A stretch of 64,000 nucleotides of DNA from Dictyostelium discoideum (Eukaryota), in NCBI GenBank assembly GCA_000004695.1, contig CM000151.3, forward strand, positions 2,432,001 through 2,496,000, given 5' to 3'. The notes beneath the pieces are model-generated. The model was not told where the DNA came from and searched no databases. It saw only the letters and a program-made list of their open reading frames with translations. Below, piece by piece: positions 8,983 through 60,088 of this stretch (position 1 is its first letter; every line of letters begins with the position of its first letter). A program made the position numbers and the translations under genes.

Positions 8983-10458
8983 TTGTAATTGATCAGATTG
9001 TTCTTGTAATTCTTGAGGAGTTGGTAAAATTTCTAAAGGAATTGAAGTGAAAATTCTAGAGATAGAATGATTTTGACCATGTAATGCATAGATTGAATCA
9101 TGATAAACAACCAAGTCATGAATTTGATTTGTATCTAATTTCCATTCTAAAACTTCAACTTCATTAACATCGATTAAGAGTAATGATAATTCATCATATG
9201 ATATTAAGTAATTACCAAATGGTAATAACTTTGAGAATATCATTGGGAATTTACCAGTGAGATAAGTATTTGCATCATTGGATGAATTTGAAGATATTAA
9301 TGGTTTTGGTTTCAATATTATATTTGGTATTGGATTTGTAGTACCATCTTCGTTTGTGGTTGAGGATGGTGTGAAATTCATAGTCGATAAAACACGACCA
9401 TCAATTGGATCGGCTAACCATAATCTTTTGCCAGGTCTTGATGTGTAAACAGAGGATTTATAAAATGGGTGAAAACAAGCACCCTGTTTAGTATTCTCAC
9501 GTTGTTTCTTACCAATTTGAATGATACTCAATACTTTACCAACATTGGTAGCTGTTAGTATTTGAAAATTTACAACTATCGATTTGGTTAATGTGCTTGC
9601 TAATATTGAAATAGTGATTGAGTTTACTGGTGGTATTGAATTTGTTATTGGTATAGTATGTACAATATTTTGTTGTTGTTGATGATGATTATTTAATGAC
9701 GAATTATTCGAATTTGAATTTGAGTTTGTGGTTAATTGAATATCCTGGTGTAGTTGTGTATTTGTTATTGTTGGTATCGATGGTATTATATCCAATTGTA
9801 CAAGTTTTGAATCACATTTATAAACTAGGTCAGCAGAGAAAAAGAATGATTTTCTAGCTTTTGTGACGGAACAACAATAAAGGTTACCCAAATCATCGCC
9901 ACTAAATAAATAACCACCGCAATGACTCCATATCAATGTTGTAATTTCTGCATCTTTTGGATGATCTGTCATCTTGACCAATACTTTCTCTTTCTCTCTA
10001 CGAATTGATATATTCGGTTCAATGATGAATATGGTCTTATGTGTTGCAATCGCTACTAAATTATCATTACATGGATTTATCTTTATAATTGAAATTTGAT
10101 CCCTTATATCATTTAATGATAAAATTTGTGTGAATGATAAATTTTCATTTGTAAATATTTTAACTGTTGGTAATAAATATGATTGTGGTTGTTGTAGTTG
10201 TGGTTGTAGTTGTTGTTGATTATCTTGATTTTTATTCTTTGGAATTATTGATGACATTGATTTCCTTTCAAAGAAATATAAACTACCAGTATTTGCACCC
10301 AATGCTAAATATCTTTTTGAAACATCTAAACATGTATACTTTACTCTACCACCACCACCTATTGGTGATAATATACTATCTAAATCATTTATAACTAATT
10401 GTGGTGTTGGTTGCTGTTGTTGTTGATTTGTTGTTTGTTGTTCCTCTTCATTGGTCAT
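5736..10458 (-). CDS. HPS5-like WD40/beta-propeller protein with a long alpha-helical C-terminal region ending in a RING-H2-like zinc finger; 2 exons (10458-8835, 8722-5736), ~1545 aa
   Basis: Exon 1 ORF 8764-10458 starts MTNEEEQQ…; the segment RVKYTCLDVSKRYLALGANTGSLYFFERKS … GKKQRENTKQGACFHPF resembles the HPS5 N-terminal propeller as I recall it ([26 protein letters not shown] … KERDGEYGACF). Donor CAAG|GTAATTTTTT at minus 8834/8833, acceptor (A)nAG at 8724/8723; the junction codon G+AG=GAG keeps the frame into the 954-aa ORF, whose annotated M is actually a TTG (so it is an internal exon). C-terminus CPICTLSL…CGHSYHHCC…CMLC fits the C-x2-C…C-x-H-x2-H-x-C…C-x2-C RING-H2 pattern. Internal poly-Q (CAA)n and T/S-rich low complexity. 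Confidence 0.6.
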
Positions 10459-18835: not shown

Positions 18836-19185
18836 TTTTTTTAAAAATTGATTTTATGAAATTAAAAAAAAAAAAAAAAAAAAAAATTTAATTATAAAAT
18901 CAAAAAAAAAAACCATAAAATATGCCAAAAAAAAATAAAAAAATAAAATTAAAAAAAATAAAAATTAATTATAGTAATTTATAAATATCTTCAAAAGTAA
19001 AGATTCTTTTCAAATTGAAAAAAAAAAAAAAAACCAACCCTCTTTTTTAAAAAAAAATAAAAAAAAATCTTTATTAAATTTGAAAGTAAAAAATGAAATT
19101 CTTGAATAATAAAGTTAAATATCAAACCAATAAAAATAAGGTTATCGCGTTAACTAGTATTTTTATTAATTTTATATTTTTAATT

Positions 19186-42612: not shown

Positions 42613-43374
42613 TTATTCCAAAGCGGTAGCAATGTAATCAGCTCTTAATGAGTAAACTTTGTTTTCATTCCAAGTGTAGAAAACACAATCAAAACCTTTG
42701 GTGGTAATATTTCTTGGTTGGACACCAATACGGGTTTGATTGGTGGCATCAGTACAATCGATTTGATCAAAGTTGAGAGCAACCTTTGGGAGAGTAGCAA
42801 ATTCAAATTGGAATTTAACTGGGACAACAACTTCACGTTTACCTGAACCGGTATTTAAGGCACAGTTATCACCAGTGTAAATATCTGCACCAACTTGAGT
42901 GACTGAGCTTTGTACTGGTTGAGTGTAGAATTCACATCTTAATGAAATGTGACCATTCCAGGTTAATGGGTGGATAGCAATTGAACGAGCTCTAATTGGA
43001 GTATCAAAGAAATGATTAACAACAGTGTTACGATCAGTTACACCAGTAACAGCAGCACCATTACGATATTCAAACCAGGAAACATTATCTAATGAATAAC
43101 GGATTTTGTATGATGTAACCCATTGATCAGCATCACCACGACCTTGGAGAGCAACACACATAAAAGTACGTGGAACTTCACAACCAGCAACAATGTATTG
43201 GTTGGTATCTACGATTGATGAACACCAAGCTTCTGAACCATCAATGGTATTGGTACCATTGTTTTTGTAGTTTAAGGCAGAATTAAATTGAGTGTGGACA
43301 CCATTGTAATTGGTTGAGGTTCTTAAATGGCATTGAGCATTTGCGAGGAGTTGAACTAAACCTTGGGTAGACAT
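42613..43374 (-). CDS. dscA: Discoidin I (N-terminal discoidin/F5-8 type C domain + C-terminal H-type lectin domain; RGD motif), 253 aa, single exon
   Basis: Translation [116 protein letters not shown]… matches my memory of D. discoideum discoidin I. Which discoidin I chain (A vs C/D) cannot be decided from memory, so the symbol is the family founder. Confidence 0.8.
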
Positions 43375-47031: not shown

Positions 47032-48045
47032 ATGGTTAAAATTGCAACAAGAAGTTCAACCAAATTATCAAAAAGAAATAGAGTCCAATTGTTTGACTTA
47101 CATGAATTACTCTACTCACCATTACCAAGAATTTATAAAAAAGTAAAAAAAACAACCTCACAAAAATCAATTTCAAAATCAAAATTTTCATCATCATCAC
47201 CAAAATTAATCATAAATAATAATATTCAACAACAACCAATTATTGCAAAACAAACACAACAACAAACACAACAACTAACACAACAACAAACACAACAACA
47301 AACACAACAACAAACACAACAAATTCAACAAACACAACAACAAACACAACCAATTATTCCAAACACAATATCAACATCAATTTATAGATTAATTGAATCA
47401 AATAGTGTTATTAATGGATCAACAATATGGGAAAATTGTAATACGATGGTTTTGACAAATTCAACAACTGATAAGATTGGATCATGTTTTTATAATAAAG
47501 AGATTAATATTGAAAATAAAAGTTGGATAAATGAATTTACATATACTGTTGAAACAAATGGTACTGATGGTTTAACATTTATATTACATAATTCAAAAGA
47601 GTCACCACAATCATATCAACATTATAAACTATTAGAAGGTGGTCAATTAGAATATAATGATGATCATTTAAATAGTGCAAATGGTGGTATATTAGCAATT
47701 GAATTTAAAACATCATTAAATGATAATATTAATTCACCAAATTCAAATCAAATAATAATTAAAACAAAAAATAATAATAATAATTTATTAACAAATGTAA
47801 TTCATAGTTATTCAATGACAAATAACTCAATTATAAATAATACAAATAATGTTAGAATTGAATATAATCATTTAAATTCATCAATTAAAATCATTTATAA
47901 TGGTCAAATCTTATTAACTAATATAGAAATACCATCTGCAAATATAACTTTCCCAAAATTTGCCTATTTTGGTTATACTGCCGCAACTGGTTATTGTATT
48001 CAAAAACAGTCAATTAGAAATTGTAAATTAACCTTAAATCAATAA
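47032..48045 (+). CDS. Protein with Q/T-rich repeat region and a C-terminal L-type (legume-like, ConA-fold) lectin domain; 337 aa, single exon
   Basis: Lectin-like blocks: TDGLTFILHNS (cf. legume ADGLAFFLAP), GGILAIEFKTSLNDN (cf. GG.LGVEFDT), and FAYFGYTAATGYCIQKQSIRN (cf. VGFSAATG…H.I.SW.F). An upstream (QQT)n is encoded by a caaacacaacaa repeat at 47260-47345. Confidence 0.5.
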   Translation: MVKIATRSSTKLSKRNRVQLFDLHELLYSPLPRIYKKVKKTTSQKSISKSKFSSSSPKLIINNNIQQQPIIAKQTQQQTQQLTQQQTQQQTQQQTQQIQQTQQQTQPIIPNTISTSIYRLIESNSVINGSTIWENCNTMVLTNSTTDKIGSCFYNKEINIENKSWINEFTYTVETNGTDGLTFILHNSKESPQSYQHYKLLEGGQLEYNDDHLNSANGGILAIEFKTSLNDNINSPNSNQIIIKTKNNNNNLLTNVIHSYSMTNNSIINNTNNVRIEYNHLNSSIKIIYNGQILLTNIEIPSANITFPKFAYFGYTAATGYCIQKQSIRNCKLTLNQ

Positions 48046-48366: not shown

Positions 48367-48763
48367 ATGGGCATCATTGATAATATATCATATATTATAT
48401 CTATAACATACGTCAATGGTCGATTTCCTATAACTAGTGAAAGTTTTATATTATCAATTAAAGAGGAAGAACTTTATTGCAAGCCATTATCAAATAATTC
48501 AAATAACCCCTCTAAATTATTAATAGACTCTAAACCTTATATTAAAATTCAAGAGAAAACTTTTGAGCTTTCTTGCATTTAATGCCCCTAACTACTATTC
48601 TCCTGTAATGGTAATTCATGAAATTGATTATTGCGAACCAGATGATAGTTTCTCAAGATACTCATACAAAGAATCATTTTGTGTAGCAAACGTTAATTGT
48701 AATCCAATGGTTGGTTTGGCTTTTAAAACTTGTGATGGGCTAAAGTTTTTTAAAAAAAAATAA
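48367..48763 (+). CDS. Small Cys-motif protein family member (copy 1), split across two frames (48367-48582 and 48563-48763)
   Basis: Frame a: …LIDSKPYIKIQEKTFELSCI*. Frame b: …VMVIHEIDYCEPDDSFSRYSYKESFCVANVNCNPMVGLAFKTCDGLKFFKKK*. Copy 2 has both halves in one frame, so copy 1 carries a frameshift or short indel. Confidence 0.4.
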
Positions 48764-49019
48764 CTCAATAAATAAATTTACAATTAAATTTTTCTTATTC
48801 AATTTTGTTTTATTTGAAGTTGTGGTTATTTTATTTTTTTATTTTTTTATTTATTTATTTATTTTTTTATTTTATTTATATTTTTTTTAAAATAAAATGA
48901 ATAATTAATATATTTGCCATAAAGAATAAAAATAATTTAATTGAGTAAAATAATAATGTAAACAAAAATTATAAAATAAGAATTGTTTTATTTATAATAA
49001 TTATTTTCAAAAGACACAA

Positions 49020-49310
49020 ATTCCTACCCAAGATTTGATATAATCACTGCCCCTTATATTAAAATTGTGAATAAAACATTTGAAATTTCCTGTACTAATA
49101 TTAATTCCCATTATGGTATTCCAAATACAATGAAAATTTATCAAATCGATTACTGTGAACCAGATGATACTTCCCAAGATACTCATATAAAGAATCATTT
49201 TGTATAGCAAATGTAAATCGTACTCCAAATTTGTGTTTGCATTTTAAACTTTGTGAAGTATTACATTTTATAAAAAATGAATTTAAAACTAAAAAATAAC
49301 AAAAATAAAC
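49020..49310 (+). pseudogene. Cys-motif family copy 2 (frameshifted after CEPDD)
   Basis: …APYIKIVNKTFEISCTNINSHYGIPNTMKIYQIDYCEPDDTSQDTHIKNHFV*, with the continuation YFPRYSYKESFCIANVNRTPNLCLHFKLCEVLHFIKNEFKTKK* in the +1 frame. Homologous to copy 1 at nucleotide level. Confidence 0.45.
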
Positions 49311-49625
49311 AAAACAATTTCACTATTTTTTATTTTTATAATTTTTTAAAATTTTTATTTTTTAAAACTAAAAATTAAGTTTCTTTGTATGATATAACTA
49401 TCCAATTCTAATTTTAATCTTTTAATATTAAAAGGTTTGAAAATAAAACAATATAATTATATATTTAATAATTAAGTTGTTTTACAAATATTTATCATTG
49501 ACAATTTTTTAAAATTCAAAATAAAAAAAAAAAAAAAAAAAAAAAAAAAGGTATTTAATAAACATAATAAAGAGATTAGACCATTTCTAAACTAAAATTA
49601 AAATTTATTTACTGAGAGATTTATT

Positions 49626-49800
49626 GGTCATTTTTTAAAAATTCTAATATTTGTAATTTTTTAAAATAAAAACAAGCATTTGGAGAAAGACCCATGTTTG
49701 CTATACAAAATGATTCTTTTGCATGAGTATCTTCAGAAGTTACCATCTGAATCTTTTGATAATGGTTTGTAAAAAAAATAGTCATCTTTAATTGTTACAA
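49626..49800 (-). pseudogene. Cys-motif family copy 3 (minus strand, C-terminal part only)
   Basis: Minus strand reads …QMVTSEDTHAKESFCIANMGLSPNACFYFKKLQILEFLKNDQ*, sharing (D/S)THxKESFC(I/V)AN with copies 1 and 2. Confidence 0.4.
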
Positions 49801-50068
49801 TAAAATGTTGATAAATAACATTAATATTAAGACTATTATGATTGAAAGAACTACAAATAATATATGATACTTTTTCTGTTTTGACCATTCAATTTCTGTT
49901 TATATTTTTTATTATTATTTTTTTTTTTTTAAACAAAATAATTTTCCAAAATGTTGATAAATAAAGTTAATTTTTATTATTATTATTTGAGGGATCTTTA
50001 TTAAAACTTTATTTGGAAAACAATTATACAAAGGGTTATTTTAAAATTATTTCCTTATTTATCAAATA

Positions 50069-50101
<33 letters not shown>

Positions 50102-50221
50102 CATTTATTTAATTTCAAAAAATATAATCTGTAGAGTTTATAATACTTTTAATTAATTTTTAAATATTTTTTTTTTTATTTTATTTTATTAAATAAAGAA
50201 CACAATGGAAAAATACATTTG

Positions 50222-50439
50222 AAATTAAATGCCGTAGCCATGACCCTATTAAAGAAGTTGATTTTAGAATGGGTGAAATTCAATATATTGAACCAAATAA
50301 AAGTGTCACGAGATTTAGTGCTAAAGATTCATTTTGTATTGTCAACATGCAAAGAAATCCAAAAATATATTTATATTTTAATTTTTGTAATCCAAAAGAA
50401 TTGATTGATAATAAAATTAAAAATGAAAGTACAAAGTAA
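50222..50439 (+). CDS. Cys-motif family copy 4 (divergent)
   Basis: FEIKCRSHDPIKEVDFRMGEIQYIEPNKSVTRFSAKDSFCIVNMQRNPKIYLYFNFCNPKELIDNKIKNESTK* preserves the (Y)IEP…SFC(I)VN…NP…C…C spacing. Confidence 0.4.
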
Positions 50440-50778
50440 ATCAATAAAATTTTTTTTTTTTTATTAAATAAATAAAAAAACAATTGACCTAAATAATAAT
50501 TTTTTTAATAATAATATATCTTAATATACATTCAAAAAAAAAGAAATATATAATTTTTTTTTTTTTTTTTTTTTTCCAAGCAACTCCATTTTAATTTTTT
50601 TTTTTTTTTATTTATTTTTTAATTTTTTTTTTTTTTTATTTTTTTTTTTTTATTTTTTTTTTTTTTTTTAATTAAATTTTTTGCTGTTCACAAAATTTTT
50701 TTTTTTTTAATTTTTTCATTTTTTATTTTTTTATTTTTTTTTTTTTATTTCATCACAAATACATATTAAACATACAAA

Positions 50779-50895
50779 ATGTCACACGAACATGTTAACT
50801 TTCCAGTATATGGACAAGTAGATTACTTTAAACAACAACAACCACAACAACCACAATATAATCCACATTTAGGTGGAAAACAAAAAACATTGTAA

Positions 50896-50931
<36 letters not shown>

Positions 50932-51280
50932 CACATAATCATCAAATAAACTGATAAATAAAATAAAAAAAAAAAATAACCAATAAAAACAAACACTTAT
51001 TAATTTATCTATTTAAATAATTATAATGAATCATTTTATTTAGAGACCCAATTGTTACAGGTACATCAGTTATTGCAATTAAATATGATAAAGGTGTTGT
51101 AATGGGTTCAGATATGTTATTATCATATGGTTCATTAGCAAGATTTAATAGCACTGAAAGAATGAAGAAATTTGGTGGCTATACTATTGTTGGTGCAAGT
51201 GGTGAATATAGTGATTTTCAATCAATTACAAATACTCTTAATGATTTAGTGTATGTAATAATTTTATATAAAATCTATAT

Positions 51281-51371
<91 letters not shown>

Positions 51372-52020
51372 ATATTATTAATTATATGATTTACTAATTT
51401 ACATTTTCATTTTTTTATTTTATTTTATTTTGAAATAATATAGTACTGATGATCATTGTATGGATGATGGTTCAAAATTAAGTTCAGAAGAAATCTGGAA
51501 TTATTTAGCTCGTGTTTTATACAATCAAAGAAATAGAGGTAATCCACTCTGGAATACTTTAGTTGTTATGGGTTATCAAGGTGGTAAAAGGTAAAAATTT
51601 TAATTTTTAATTTTTTATTTTTTTTAAAATTATTATTATTATTATATTTATATTTATATTAATATAATGTAAAATTTTAAATACATTTTTATTTTTTTTT
51701 ATTTTAGCTTTTTAGGTAAAGTTGATTTAGTTGGAACTTGTTACAAAGATGATATTATTACAACTGGTTATGGTTCACATATTGCATTACCATTATTAAG
51801 AAAAGCAAGAGATGAAAATCCAAATATGAATTTAGAACAAGCTAAACAATTAATTCAAGATTGTTTAAGAGTACTTTTTTACAGAGATGCTAGATCTTCT
51901 AAAAAGATTCAAATCTCTGTCGCTGGTGAAGAAGGTATTGAAATTTCTGGTCCAATTGAATTAGATACTTTCCATTGGAATAGTGGTGAAGCTGCTGTTA
52001 AAAATTTTAGTCAAGTTTAA
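50779..52020 (+). CDS. psmB4: Proteasome subunit beta type-4 (beta7); 4 exons 50779-50891, 51044-51250, 51444-51590, 51708-52020
   Basis: Exon 2 …IVTGTSVIAIKYDKGVVMGSDMLLSYGSLARFNSTERMKKFGGYTIVGASGEYSDFQSI…, exon 3 …WNYLARVLYNQRNRGNPLWNTLVVMGYQGGK, and exon 4 SFLGKVDLVGTCYKDDIITTGYGSHIALPLLRKA…RVLFYRDARSSKKIQISV…IEISGP align with human PSMB4 (TGTSVLGVKF…SYGSLARF…, NPLWNTMVIGGY, ESFLGYVDMLG…TGYGAYLAQPLLR, RVLYYRDARS). Donors GTAAAT, GTATGT, GTAAAA and T-rich AG acceptors, phases checked. Intron 2 carries a (TAA)n. Confidence 0.85.
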
Positions 52021-60014: not shown

Positions 60015-60088
60015 GCCTTAGTAGCTCAGTTGGTACGAGCGTGAGACTGAAGATCTTAAGGTCGCTGGTTCGATCCCGGCCTGAGGCA
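60015..60088 (+). tRNA. tRNA-Phe (anticodon GAA)
   Basis: GCCTTAG acceptor stem pairing with CTGAGGC (one G-U), discriminator A; D-arm GCTC-AGTTGGTAC-GAGC; anticodon arm TGAGA-CTGAAGA-TCTTA with GAA at positions 34-36; T-arm GCTGG-TTCGATC-CCGGC. No intron and no encoded CCA. Confidence 0.9.

Follow-up and report, generated by a model that had tools for sequence, protein, structure and literature searches.

Four disabled copies of a Dictyostelium-restricted small-protein family lie between a lectin-domain gene and a proteasome gene in Dictyostelium discoideum

The four units and their lesions

Four related gene units were found at positions 48367-50439 of a 64,000-nucleotide stretch of Dictyostelium discoideum DNA (assembly GCA_000004695.1, contig CM000151.3, positions 2,432,001 to 2,496,000 of the forward strand), which is called the window here and whose coordinates are used throughout. 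An earlier note, made from the DNA letters, had reported these units, and six-frame translation, tblastn and a family hidden Markov model (HMM) agreed on their places. Their orientation was also as reported, with units 1, 2 and 4 on the plus strand and unit 3 on the minus strand. After repair of the frames, the units matched one another in tblastn against the whole window (E 1e-9 to 1e-19), and the family HMM, run over the six frames of the window, found the four units alone (E 6e-11 to 4e-31). A candidate fifth copy at 18990-19097 (tblastn E 0.003) was rejected as low-complexity poly-K/F sequence to which the family HMM gave no match. At the DNA level, units 1 and 2 were linked by direct repeats of 72-82% identity (48650-48788 and 49171-49309 at 72%), units 2 and 3 by an inverted repeat of 92 nt (49189-49280 and 49628-49719, 76%), and units 1 and 3 by an inverted repeat of 61 nt (77%). 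The shared motif that had been proposed, PYIKI..KTFE[IL]SC...IDYCEPDD...RYSYKESFC[VI]AN...P..C, was present in units 1 and 2, was partly deleted in unit 3 and occurred in a diverged form in unit 4. A neighbor-joining tree placed units 1 to 4 in lineages A, D, E and F of the family, and they are named psiA, psiD, psiE and psiF (Table 1).

Each of the four units was disabled. In psiA, 5 bp (TATAT) were missing between 48578 and 48579, within a short TA repeat, in comparison with both orthologues; the deletion produced a premature TAA at 48580-48582, and the rest of the open reading frame (ORF) continued in another frame up to the original stop at 48761-48763. The first ~40 codons of psiD were lost, with nothing alignable to them left, and a 1-bp deletion (one T, TTT>TT) at ~49170/49171 led to a premature TAG at 49205-49207, beyond which the C-terminal part ran on in the +1 frame to 49297-49299. 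Units 1 and 2 were indeed frameshifted differently, by a 5-bp and a 1-bp deletion, but the break in unit 1 was not a homopolymer slip. Unit 3 was more than the simple fragment described before, as both ends of psiE were kept; it contained a 144-bp internal deletion with the junction at 49750/49749, where CAGAT stands at both edges in the intact sequence, a TCA>TGA nonsense codon at 49733-49735 and one extra A (AAA>AAAA) in the run at 49717-49720. In psiF, the upstream region with the promoter and the ATG were kept, and a clean 182-bp internal deletion took out codons ~4-64 in a gap-tolerant alignment. The unit read MEKYI followed by a TGA at 50220-50222, and the C-terminal 75 codons stayed open in a different frame that ends with the TAA at 50437-50439. 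Its 5' end had seemed to be replaced, which was an alignment artefact. The description of unit 4 as highly diverged was right for the motif, but the unit itself represents the older paralogue F shortened by the internal deletion. Introns were rejected as the cause of the frame breaks, as every intact orthologue was one uninterrupted ORF and the breaks matched deletions relative to the orthologues. In the spacer between psiE and psiF, a 27-nt direct duplicate (89%; 49948-49974 against 49802-49828) of an N-terminal coding segment of psiE ("INVIYQHF", minus strand) suggests further small rearrangements in the upstream region that these head-to-head units share.

The earlier note had left room for assembly errors in homopolymers as the source of the broken frames, and the genome is in fact extremely AT-rich with many long homopolymers, and two lesions fall within short runs (TTT>TT at ~49171 and AAA>AAAA at 49717-49720). 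However, the window was 99.6% identical over 20.6 kb to contig JBTAPE010000001.1 (GCA_054883475.1, D. discoideum, locus tag ACTFIT), which belongs to a set of Nanopore and Illumina de novo assemblies (PMC12745789). Between 48300 and 50500 the two sequences were identical except for one intergenic mismatch and a 4-nt difference in poly-A length. The frame breaks, mapped base by base, are genuine because this independent assembly carried the same sequence at all four units. Moreover, most lesions were not homopolymer slips but deletions of 5, 144 or 182 bp or a base change that created a stop codon, and the annotators of ACTFIT likewise called no intact genes at the array. That sequencing or assembly errors hide genes that are really intact in this strain is therefore extremely improbable.

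Table 1. Positions of the units, gene models and neighbouring features in the window
Feature	Position	Strand	Basis or relatives
psiA (unit 1), full-length relic, lineage A	48367-48763	+	Aligned with intact ACTFIW_011830 (P0001) and nonsense-disabled ACTFIR_009673
psiD (unit 2), relic of lineage D	49001-49299	+	Closest intact relative ACTFIZ_010832 (P0009)
psiE (unit 3), relic of lineage E; ATG 49888-49886	49621-49888	-	Intact orthologues ACTFIR_009641 (P0008) and ACTFIZ_010861 (P0010)
psiF (unit 4), relic of ancestral lineage F; ATG 50205	50205-50439	+	Intact orthologues P0011, P0012, ACTFIW F, D. citrinum P0013/P0014 and D. dimigraforme L009:13126-13518
AX4 model DDB_G0273161 / DDB_G0273911 (P0015, UniProt Q556P9, 99 aa)	49710-50439	+	Spliced translation equals P0015 exactly
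L-type (legume-like) lectin-domain gene, upstream anchor of the array	47032-48045	+	PF18483 recorded on orthologues
Proteasome beta-type subunit gene (several exons), start; downstream anchor of the array	51102-52020	+	ORFs, PF00227, collinearity
Discoidin I-type gene (F5/8 type C and H-type lectin, 253 aa), ~5 kb upstream of the array	42616-43374	-	100% identical to the ACTFIT copy
Short ATG ORF, 38 aa, MSHEHVNFPVYGQVDYFKQQQPQQPQYNPHLGGKQKTL	50779-50895	+	
tRNA-Phe (GAA)	60015-60088	+	Rfam, ARAGORN

Intact relatives and rate of evolution

The search of 5.8 billion proteins with the repaired unit 1 gave eight matches, all of them "hypothetical proteins" of 105-140 aa from newly sequenced genomes of the D. 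discoideum complex. A profile search added proteins of D. citrinum and the AX4 model DDB_G0273161, and when 1.84 billion cluster representatives were searched exhaustively with a HMMER profile, seven proteins were recovered, all from Dictyostelium and one of them the distant paralogue G described below. The genomes used for comparison are the Nanopore and Illumina assemblies of Holland et al. (PNAS 2025, PMC12745789), which comprise AX2-214, two tropical isolates of D. discoideum, two possible cryptic species, three isolates of D. citrinum, D. dimigraforme and D. intermedium; the paper does not discuss this family. The psi units showed clear homology to intact protein-coding genes at the syntenic position, and the family lay between the L-type lectin-domain gene and the proteasome beta-subunit gene in those genomes of discoideum, citrinum and dimigraforme that were examined. 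The earlier note had considered that a lack of further members and of transcripts would reduce the locus to a decayed local duplication of no function. Intact members were found at the same locus in other isolates and species, and that description probably holds for this strain but fails for the family as a whole.

The content of the array was taken from tblastn and the family HMM and is given here from the lectin gene to the proteasome gene. The window and ACTFIT carried psiA, psiD, psiE(-) and psiF. Four intact copies and one relic were present in ACTFIW (A, B, C, an N-truncated psiE(-) and F), four intact copies and one disabled by a GAA>TAA nonsense codon in ACTFIR (psiA, B, C, E(-) and F), and four intact copies in ACTFIZ (C, D, E(-) and F). 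ACTFIY had one intact copy and fragments, namely an A-like ORF that the model of the lectin gene has absorbed, C and a fragment of psiE. In D. citrinum only F was present as a single copy, and D. dimigraforme had a single intact ORF of 130 codons, which is unannotated (L009:13126-13518, GCA_054859025.1). The isolates of the D. discoideum complex had 1-4 intact copies at the locus, with a different set in each, in comparison with 0 of 4 in the window. Lineage A was inactivated independently in two genomes and lineage E in three. The intact genes ACTFIR_009641 and ACTFIZ_010861 likewise lay on the minus strand with respect to the genes beside them, and the mixed orientation is ancestral because lineage E was inverted wherever it was present. 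In the neighbor-joining tree, the F clade followed the species relationships, and lineages A-E together with G formed a separate expansion specific to the discoideum complex.

Lineage G is a distant paralogue (P0016, 129 aa) at an unrelated locus of ACTFIY (L007:10001-10390; GCA_054859205.1, contig JBTAPH010000031.1), flanked by an ASCC3-like helicase gene and an acetyltransferase gene, with an Argonaute (PAZ/Piwi) gene ~7 kb away. No counterpart of G was found among the annotated proteins of AX4. In D. purpureum the orthologue of the lectin gene stood in a different neighbourhood, with synteny lost, and the family HMM gave no match within ±10 kb of it. Two gene models at the locus were of unusual length. 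The ACTFIY lectin-domain model (L005:7896-9666; D. cf. discoideum) was 446 aa instead of ~320 aa and seemed to take in the A-like ORF of the family, which tblastn placed at 9298-9627 with 70% identity to residues 7-116 of A. The D. dimigraforme model P0020 (464 aa), which adjoins the unannotated ORF, appeared to fuse the lectin-domain gene to fragments that lie downstream of it, among them a proteasome-like stretch (GSDMLLSYESLERFNST).

The intact copies were single uninterrupted, intron-less ORFs of 129-139 codons, and with the local spacer stop-triplet frequency of 0.082 the chance of 130 open codons is ~1.6e-5. The ratio of nonsynonymous to synonymous divergence (dN/dS) was 0.30-0.79 for close orthologues and 0.43-1.12 in deeper comparisons. 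It was significantly below 1 for F of discoideum against dimigraforme (0.44, p 6e-4), for C against D (0.44, p 7e-4) and for C of ACTFIW against C of ACTFIY (C_W vs C_Y; 0.43, p 0.004). The flanking genes in the same genomes showed dN/dS of 0.05-0.15 (discoidin I) and 0.11-0.43 (lectin-domain gene), with dS of 0.07-0.15 within the discoideum complex and ~0.35 to D. citrinum. Between discoideum and citrinum, the F copies had a dN of ~0.35, in comparison with ~0.045 in discoidin I and ~0.13 in the lectin-domain gene. These comparisons indicate a coding family under weak constraint, whose evolution is several times faster than that of the neighbouring genes. The proposal of a rapidly evolving small-protein family with pseudogenisation was therefore borne out by the intact relatives, by dN/dS of 0.3-1.1 against 0.05-0.43 in the flanks and by the loss of all 4 copies in the window.

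Predicted proteins and neighbouring genes

Neither a signal peptide or leader nor a transmembrane (TM) segment was found in the 17 intact members, as judged by heuristics (hydrophobic runs and Kyte-Doolittle averages) and not by a dedicated predictor; among the first 30 residues, hydrophobic runs had a maximum length of 2-5, and the maximum 19-residue Kyte-Doolittle mean was <=1.43. A conserved cysteine framework was not found across lineages A-G either. The proteins had 3-8 cysteines and no invariant Cys column: the Cys of "DYCEPDD" was V, I or F in F and G, the Cys of "SFC" was G in lineage B, and the Cys of "ISC" was Y in G. Eleven alignment columns were invariant, and the invariant core consisted of M1, S-Y near the N-terminus, the K of an "IKxD" hairpin, the I..F of "KI..(T)FEI", "Y.EP", "SF" and a C-terminal F. 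AlphaFold2 models of a C-lineage protein (predicted local distance difference test, pLDDT, 70.3; predicted template modelling score, pTM, 0.63) and of an F-lineage protein (pLDDT 75.5, pTM 0.68) both contained 9-10 consecutive β-strands, to which the F model added a C-terminal helix. Pfam searches with the repaired window units and 12 intact members gave scattered sub-threshold matches in single members only, and a profile search of the PDB sequences with the family gave nothing. The Foldseek list, which was non-significant, was led by small up-and-down β-barrels. Descent from the neighbouring lectin gene was considered but gained no support (hhalign probability 0.1%). We infer that the intact members are soluble, non-secreted, all-β proteins of ~130 aa under weak purifying selection.

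The array is bounded by the proteasome beta-subunit gene in all syntenic genomes. No lectin-domain match was obtained by Pfam for the window copy of the L-type lectin-domain gene, despite the record of PF18483 on its orthologues. The length of this gene varied from 314-330 aa in other isolates to 337 aa in the window, chiefly in a poly-Q/TQQ repeat. Farther out from the array were discoidin I, an ADH-like gene and an IRE1-like kinase. The dS of discoidin I between the window and other "D. discoideum" isolates was 0.10-0.15, so that the divergence of those isolates far exceeds what is typical among strains of one species, in agreement with the suggestion of cryptic species (PMC12745789). The short ATG ORF between psiF and the proteasome gene was flanked by very long T and A homopolymer tracts, and the tRNA-Phe gene was the sole Rfam and ARAGORN match within the 64-kb window. 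Across the window the guanine-cytosine content was 15-30%, with long A/T homopolymers and poly-Q/poly-N ORFs, as is usual in Dictyostelium; the bacterial ORF tool applied to it served as a frame reader only.

History of the array and its meaning

The region is very probably the dead remnant of a tandem array that underwent birth and death in a family restricted to Dictyostelium. The homology, the synteny, the lesions and their reproducibility, and the polymorphism of copy number and intactness were observed directly, and the steps that would connect them are as follows. The ancestral state would have been one intron-less gene of ~130 codons (lineage F) between the lectin-domain and proteasome genes, the arrangement that still exists in D. 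dimigraforme and D. citrinum. Local duplication in the D. discoideum complex would then have produced at least five further lineages, of which A-D lie on the same strand and E is inverted. Birth and death since then would have left each isolate with a different intact subset. In the NC4-derived laboratory lineage, represented by the AX4-equivalent window and ACTFIT, only four lineages remain and all of them are inactivated, by at least eight independent lesions that include the 5-, 144- and 182-bp deletions, the 1-bp deletion, the 1-bp insertion, the nonsense codon and the 5' loss. The small deletions may have arisen by slippage or microhomology, as suggested by the TA repeat and by the CAGAT and GAAA..AAT repeats at the junctions. 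With all four lineages inactivated, no full-length family protein would be expected from the locus in this strain.

Several observations weigh against this history or narrow it. The dN/dS was near 1 in some pairs (1.12 in the E lineage and 0.86-1.05 for F of discoideum against citrinum), and the constraint on some members may be weak, with some of the "intact" copies drifting. Paralogue G shows that members exist outside the array in one isolate, and AX4 was covered at the level of annotated proteins. ACTFIT is probably AX2-214, since no other D. discoideum genome of that project is nearly identical to the window. It would then share the NC4 ancestor with the window, so that it rules out sequencing and assembly error yet probably does not represent an independent wild lineage. 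If so, the lesions predate the split of AX2 and AX3 and probably come from the wild isolate NC4. A further point of this kind, the possible function of the relics in this strain, concerns the AX4 gene model DDB_G0273161. Exon 1 of this model (49710-49768) was antisense to psiE, the intron (49769-50198, GT..AG) was 430 nt long, and exon 2 (50199-50439) was the frame of psiF that is still open. That one protein has two gene IDs is consistent with the chromosome-2 duplication of AX4 (PMC12745789), and the literature search for DDB_G0273161 and DDB_G0273911 found no papers. Since introns were absent from all intact relatives, and none of these contained a counterpart of exon 1, the model is probably a chimeric prediction artefact stitched from two pseudogenes.

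The same model is the centre of the alternative that the relics still function, either through a chimeric protein with the C-terminal half of F and a new N-terminus of 20 residues or through double-stranded RNA from psiD and psiE that feeds RNA interference. The intron does bring the upstream ORF into frame with psiF, and two annotations contain the model, as it appears in that of ACTFIT too. However, exon 1 is plain antisense of psiE, the intron is long in comparison with the ~150 nt typical of Dictyostelium, and the product would miss about half of the predicted β-strands. The convergent C-terminal parts of psiD (+) and psiE (-) were 76% complementary over 92 nt, and positions 49180-49730, if co-transcribed, could form a long imperfect hairpin (minimum free energy -107 kcal/mol, z -8.3). 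Arms of such limited complementarity follow automatically from tail-to-tail paralogues, and the hairpin is probably a mere by-product of this arrangement. Residual function of either kind is thus quite unlikely, the lack of papers on both gene IDs being a further point against it.

Two other explanations concern the nature of the family. In one, the whole family is non-genic and consists of fortuitous ORFs in duplicated intergenic DNA that gene predictors annotated in the new genomes, as might be suspected from the lack of a domain, a known fold or literature and from the dN/dS values that approach 1 in several pairs. Against this, the ORFs stayed open over their 129-139 codons in 18 copies, drawn from four to five lineages at the species level and with dS reaching 0.9, a result that is hard to reconcile with the small chance of 130 open codons. 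The dN/dS was significantly below 1 in deep comparisons, the proteins share a core of invariant residues, and the two AlphaFold models were consistent with each other, so that a non-genic origin is very improbable. The other, which builds on the secreted/cysteine peptide reading of the earlier note, holds that these are secreted, disulfide-rich signalling or defence peptides of which some members have decayed. The members of A-E do have 5-8 cysteines in ~133 aa, and the fast evolution and copy-number turnover resemble many secreted effector families. However, none of the 17 intact members had a signal peptide or TM segment, no cysteine was invariant, F and G members had only 3-6 cysteines, and proteins of ~130 aa predicted to be folded all-β domains are not short knotted peptides. 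The secreted Cys-peptide reading is therefore unsupported and must be regarded as highly improbable, and the decay of a family of leaderless proteins remains the favoured explanation.

The array resembles the tgr family, of which AX4 has 38 genes and 26 pseudogenes (PMC12745789), and other unprocessed pseudogene arrays in its local tandem and inverted duplicates, in the intact and dead sets that vary between isolates and in its fast protein evolution. As in tgr-type arrays, the same lineage was inactivated independently in different isolates: psiA has lost 5 bp in the window and has acquired a nonsense codon in ACTFIR. Unlike tgr, with which there is no sequence relationship, the family encodes leaderless soluble proteins of ~130 aa and not large membrane proteins with TIG repeats, and the array is tiny (1-5 copies) with no known recognition role. 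Like orphan gene families, it gave matches among the 1.84 billion representative proteins only within the clade of D. discoideum, D. citrinum and D. dimigraforme, with no Pfam, PDB or fold match. In contrast to a single-species orphan, the F lineage was kept at the syntenic site across species at dS ~0.7-0.9, and F is therefore an established gene and not an ORF that arose de novo very recently. The proteins, which are small and leaderless and are predicted to be soluble and β-rich, may be compared with products of the same neighbourhood, namely discoidin I, a leaderless cytosolic lectin of Dictyostelium, and the protein of the adjacent L-type lectin-domain gene. The predicted 9-10 consecutive antiparallel strands in ~130 aa recall small up-and-down β-barrels (calycin/avidin-like, LolA, VtrC and Cap15), although the fold may be an unclassified one. 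The family is undescribed: its members carry "hypothetical protein" labels only, without a Pfam family, and no paper on it was found.

Tandem arrays in which a lineage-specific gene evolves fast and its copies decay are common among eukaryotes. The results nevertheless correct the reference annotation, in which DDB_G0273161 and DDB_G0273911 are doubtful, and add four unannotated pseudogenes and an unannotated intact gene of D. dimigraforme. AX2 and AX4 grow and develop normally. Since they do so with every copy at the locus dead, the family is probably dispensable under laboratory conditions of axenic growth and development. As a guess of low confidence, the intact proteins might have an accessory role in which a predicted small soluble β-barrel or sandwich binds a partner or ligand. 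It is conceivable, though unlikely, that the locus is an accessory one of the conflict type (intracellular defence, a toxin/antidote pair or a recognition factor) built on a small all-β fold that has not been seen before, with its turnover reflecting an arms race; if this were true, the complete loss would make the NC4/AX4 lineage a natural null. What emerges is a small protein family restricted to the discoideum-citrinum-dimigraforme clade, of which the standard laboratory strain has no functional copy at the locus. If the family has an ecological role, it would be invisible to work on AX2 and AX4, and wild isolates with intact copies would be the place to look for it.

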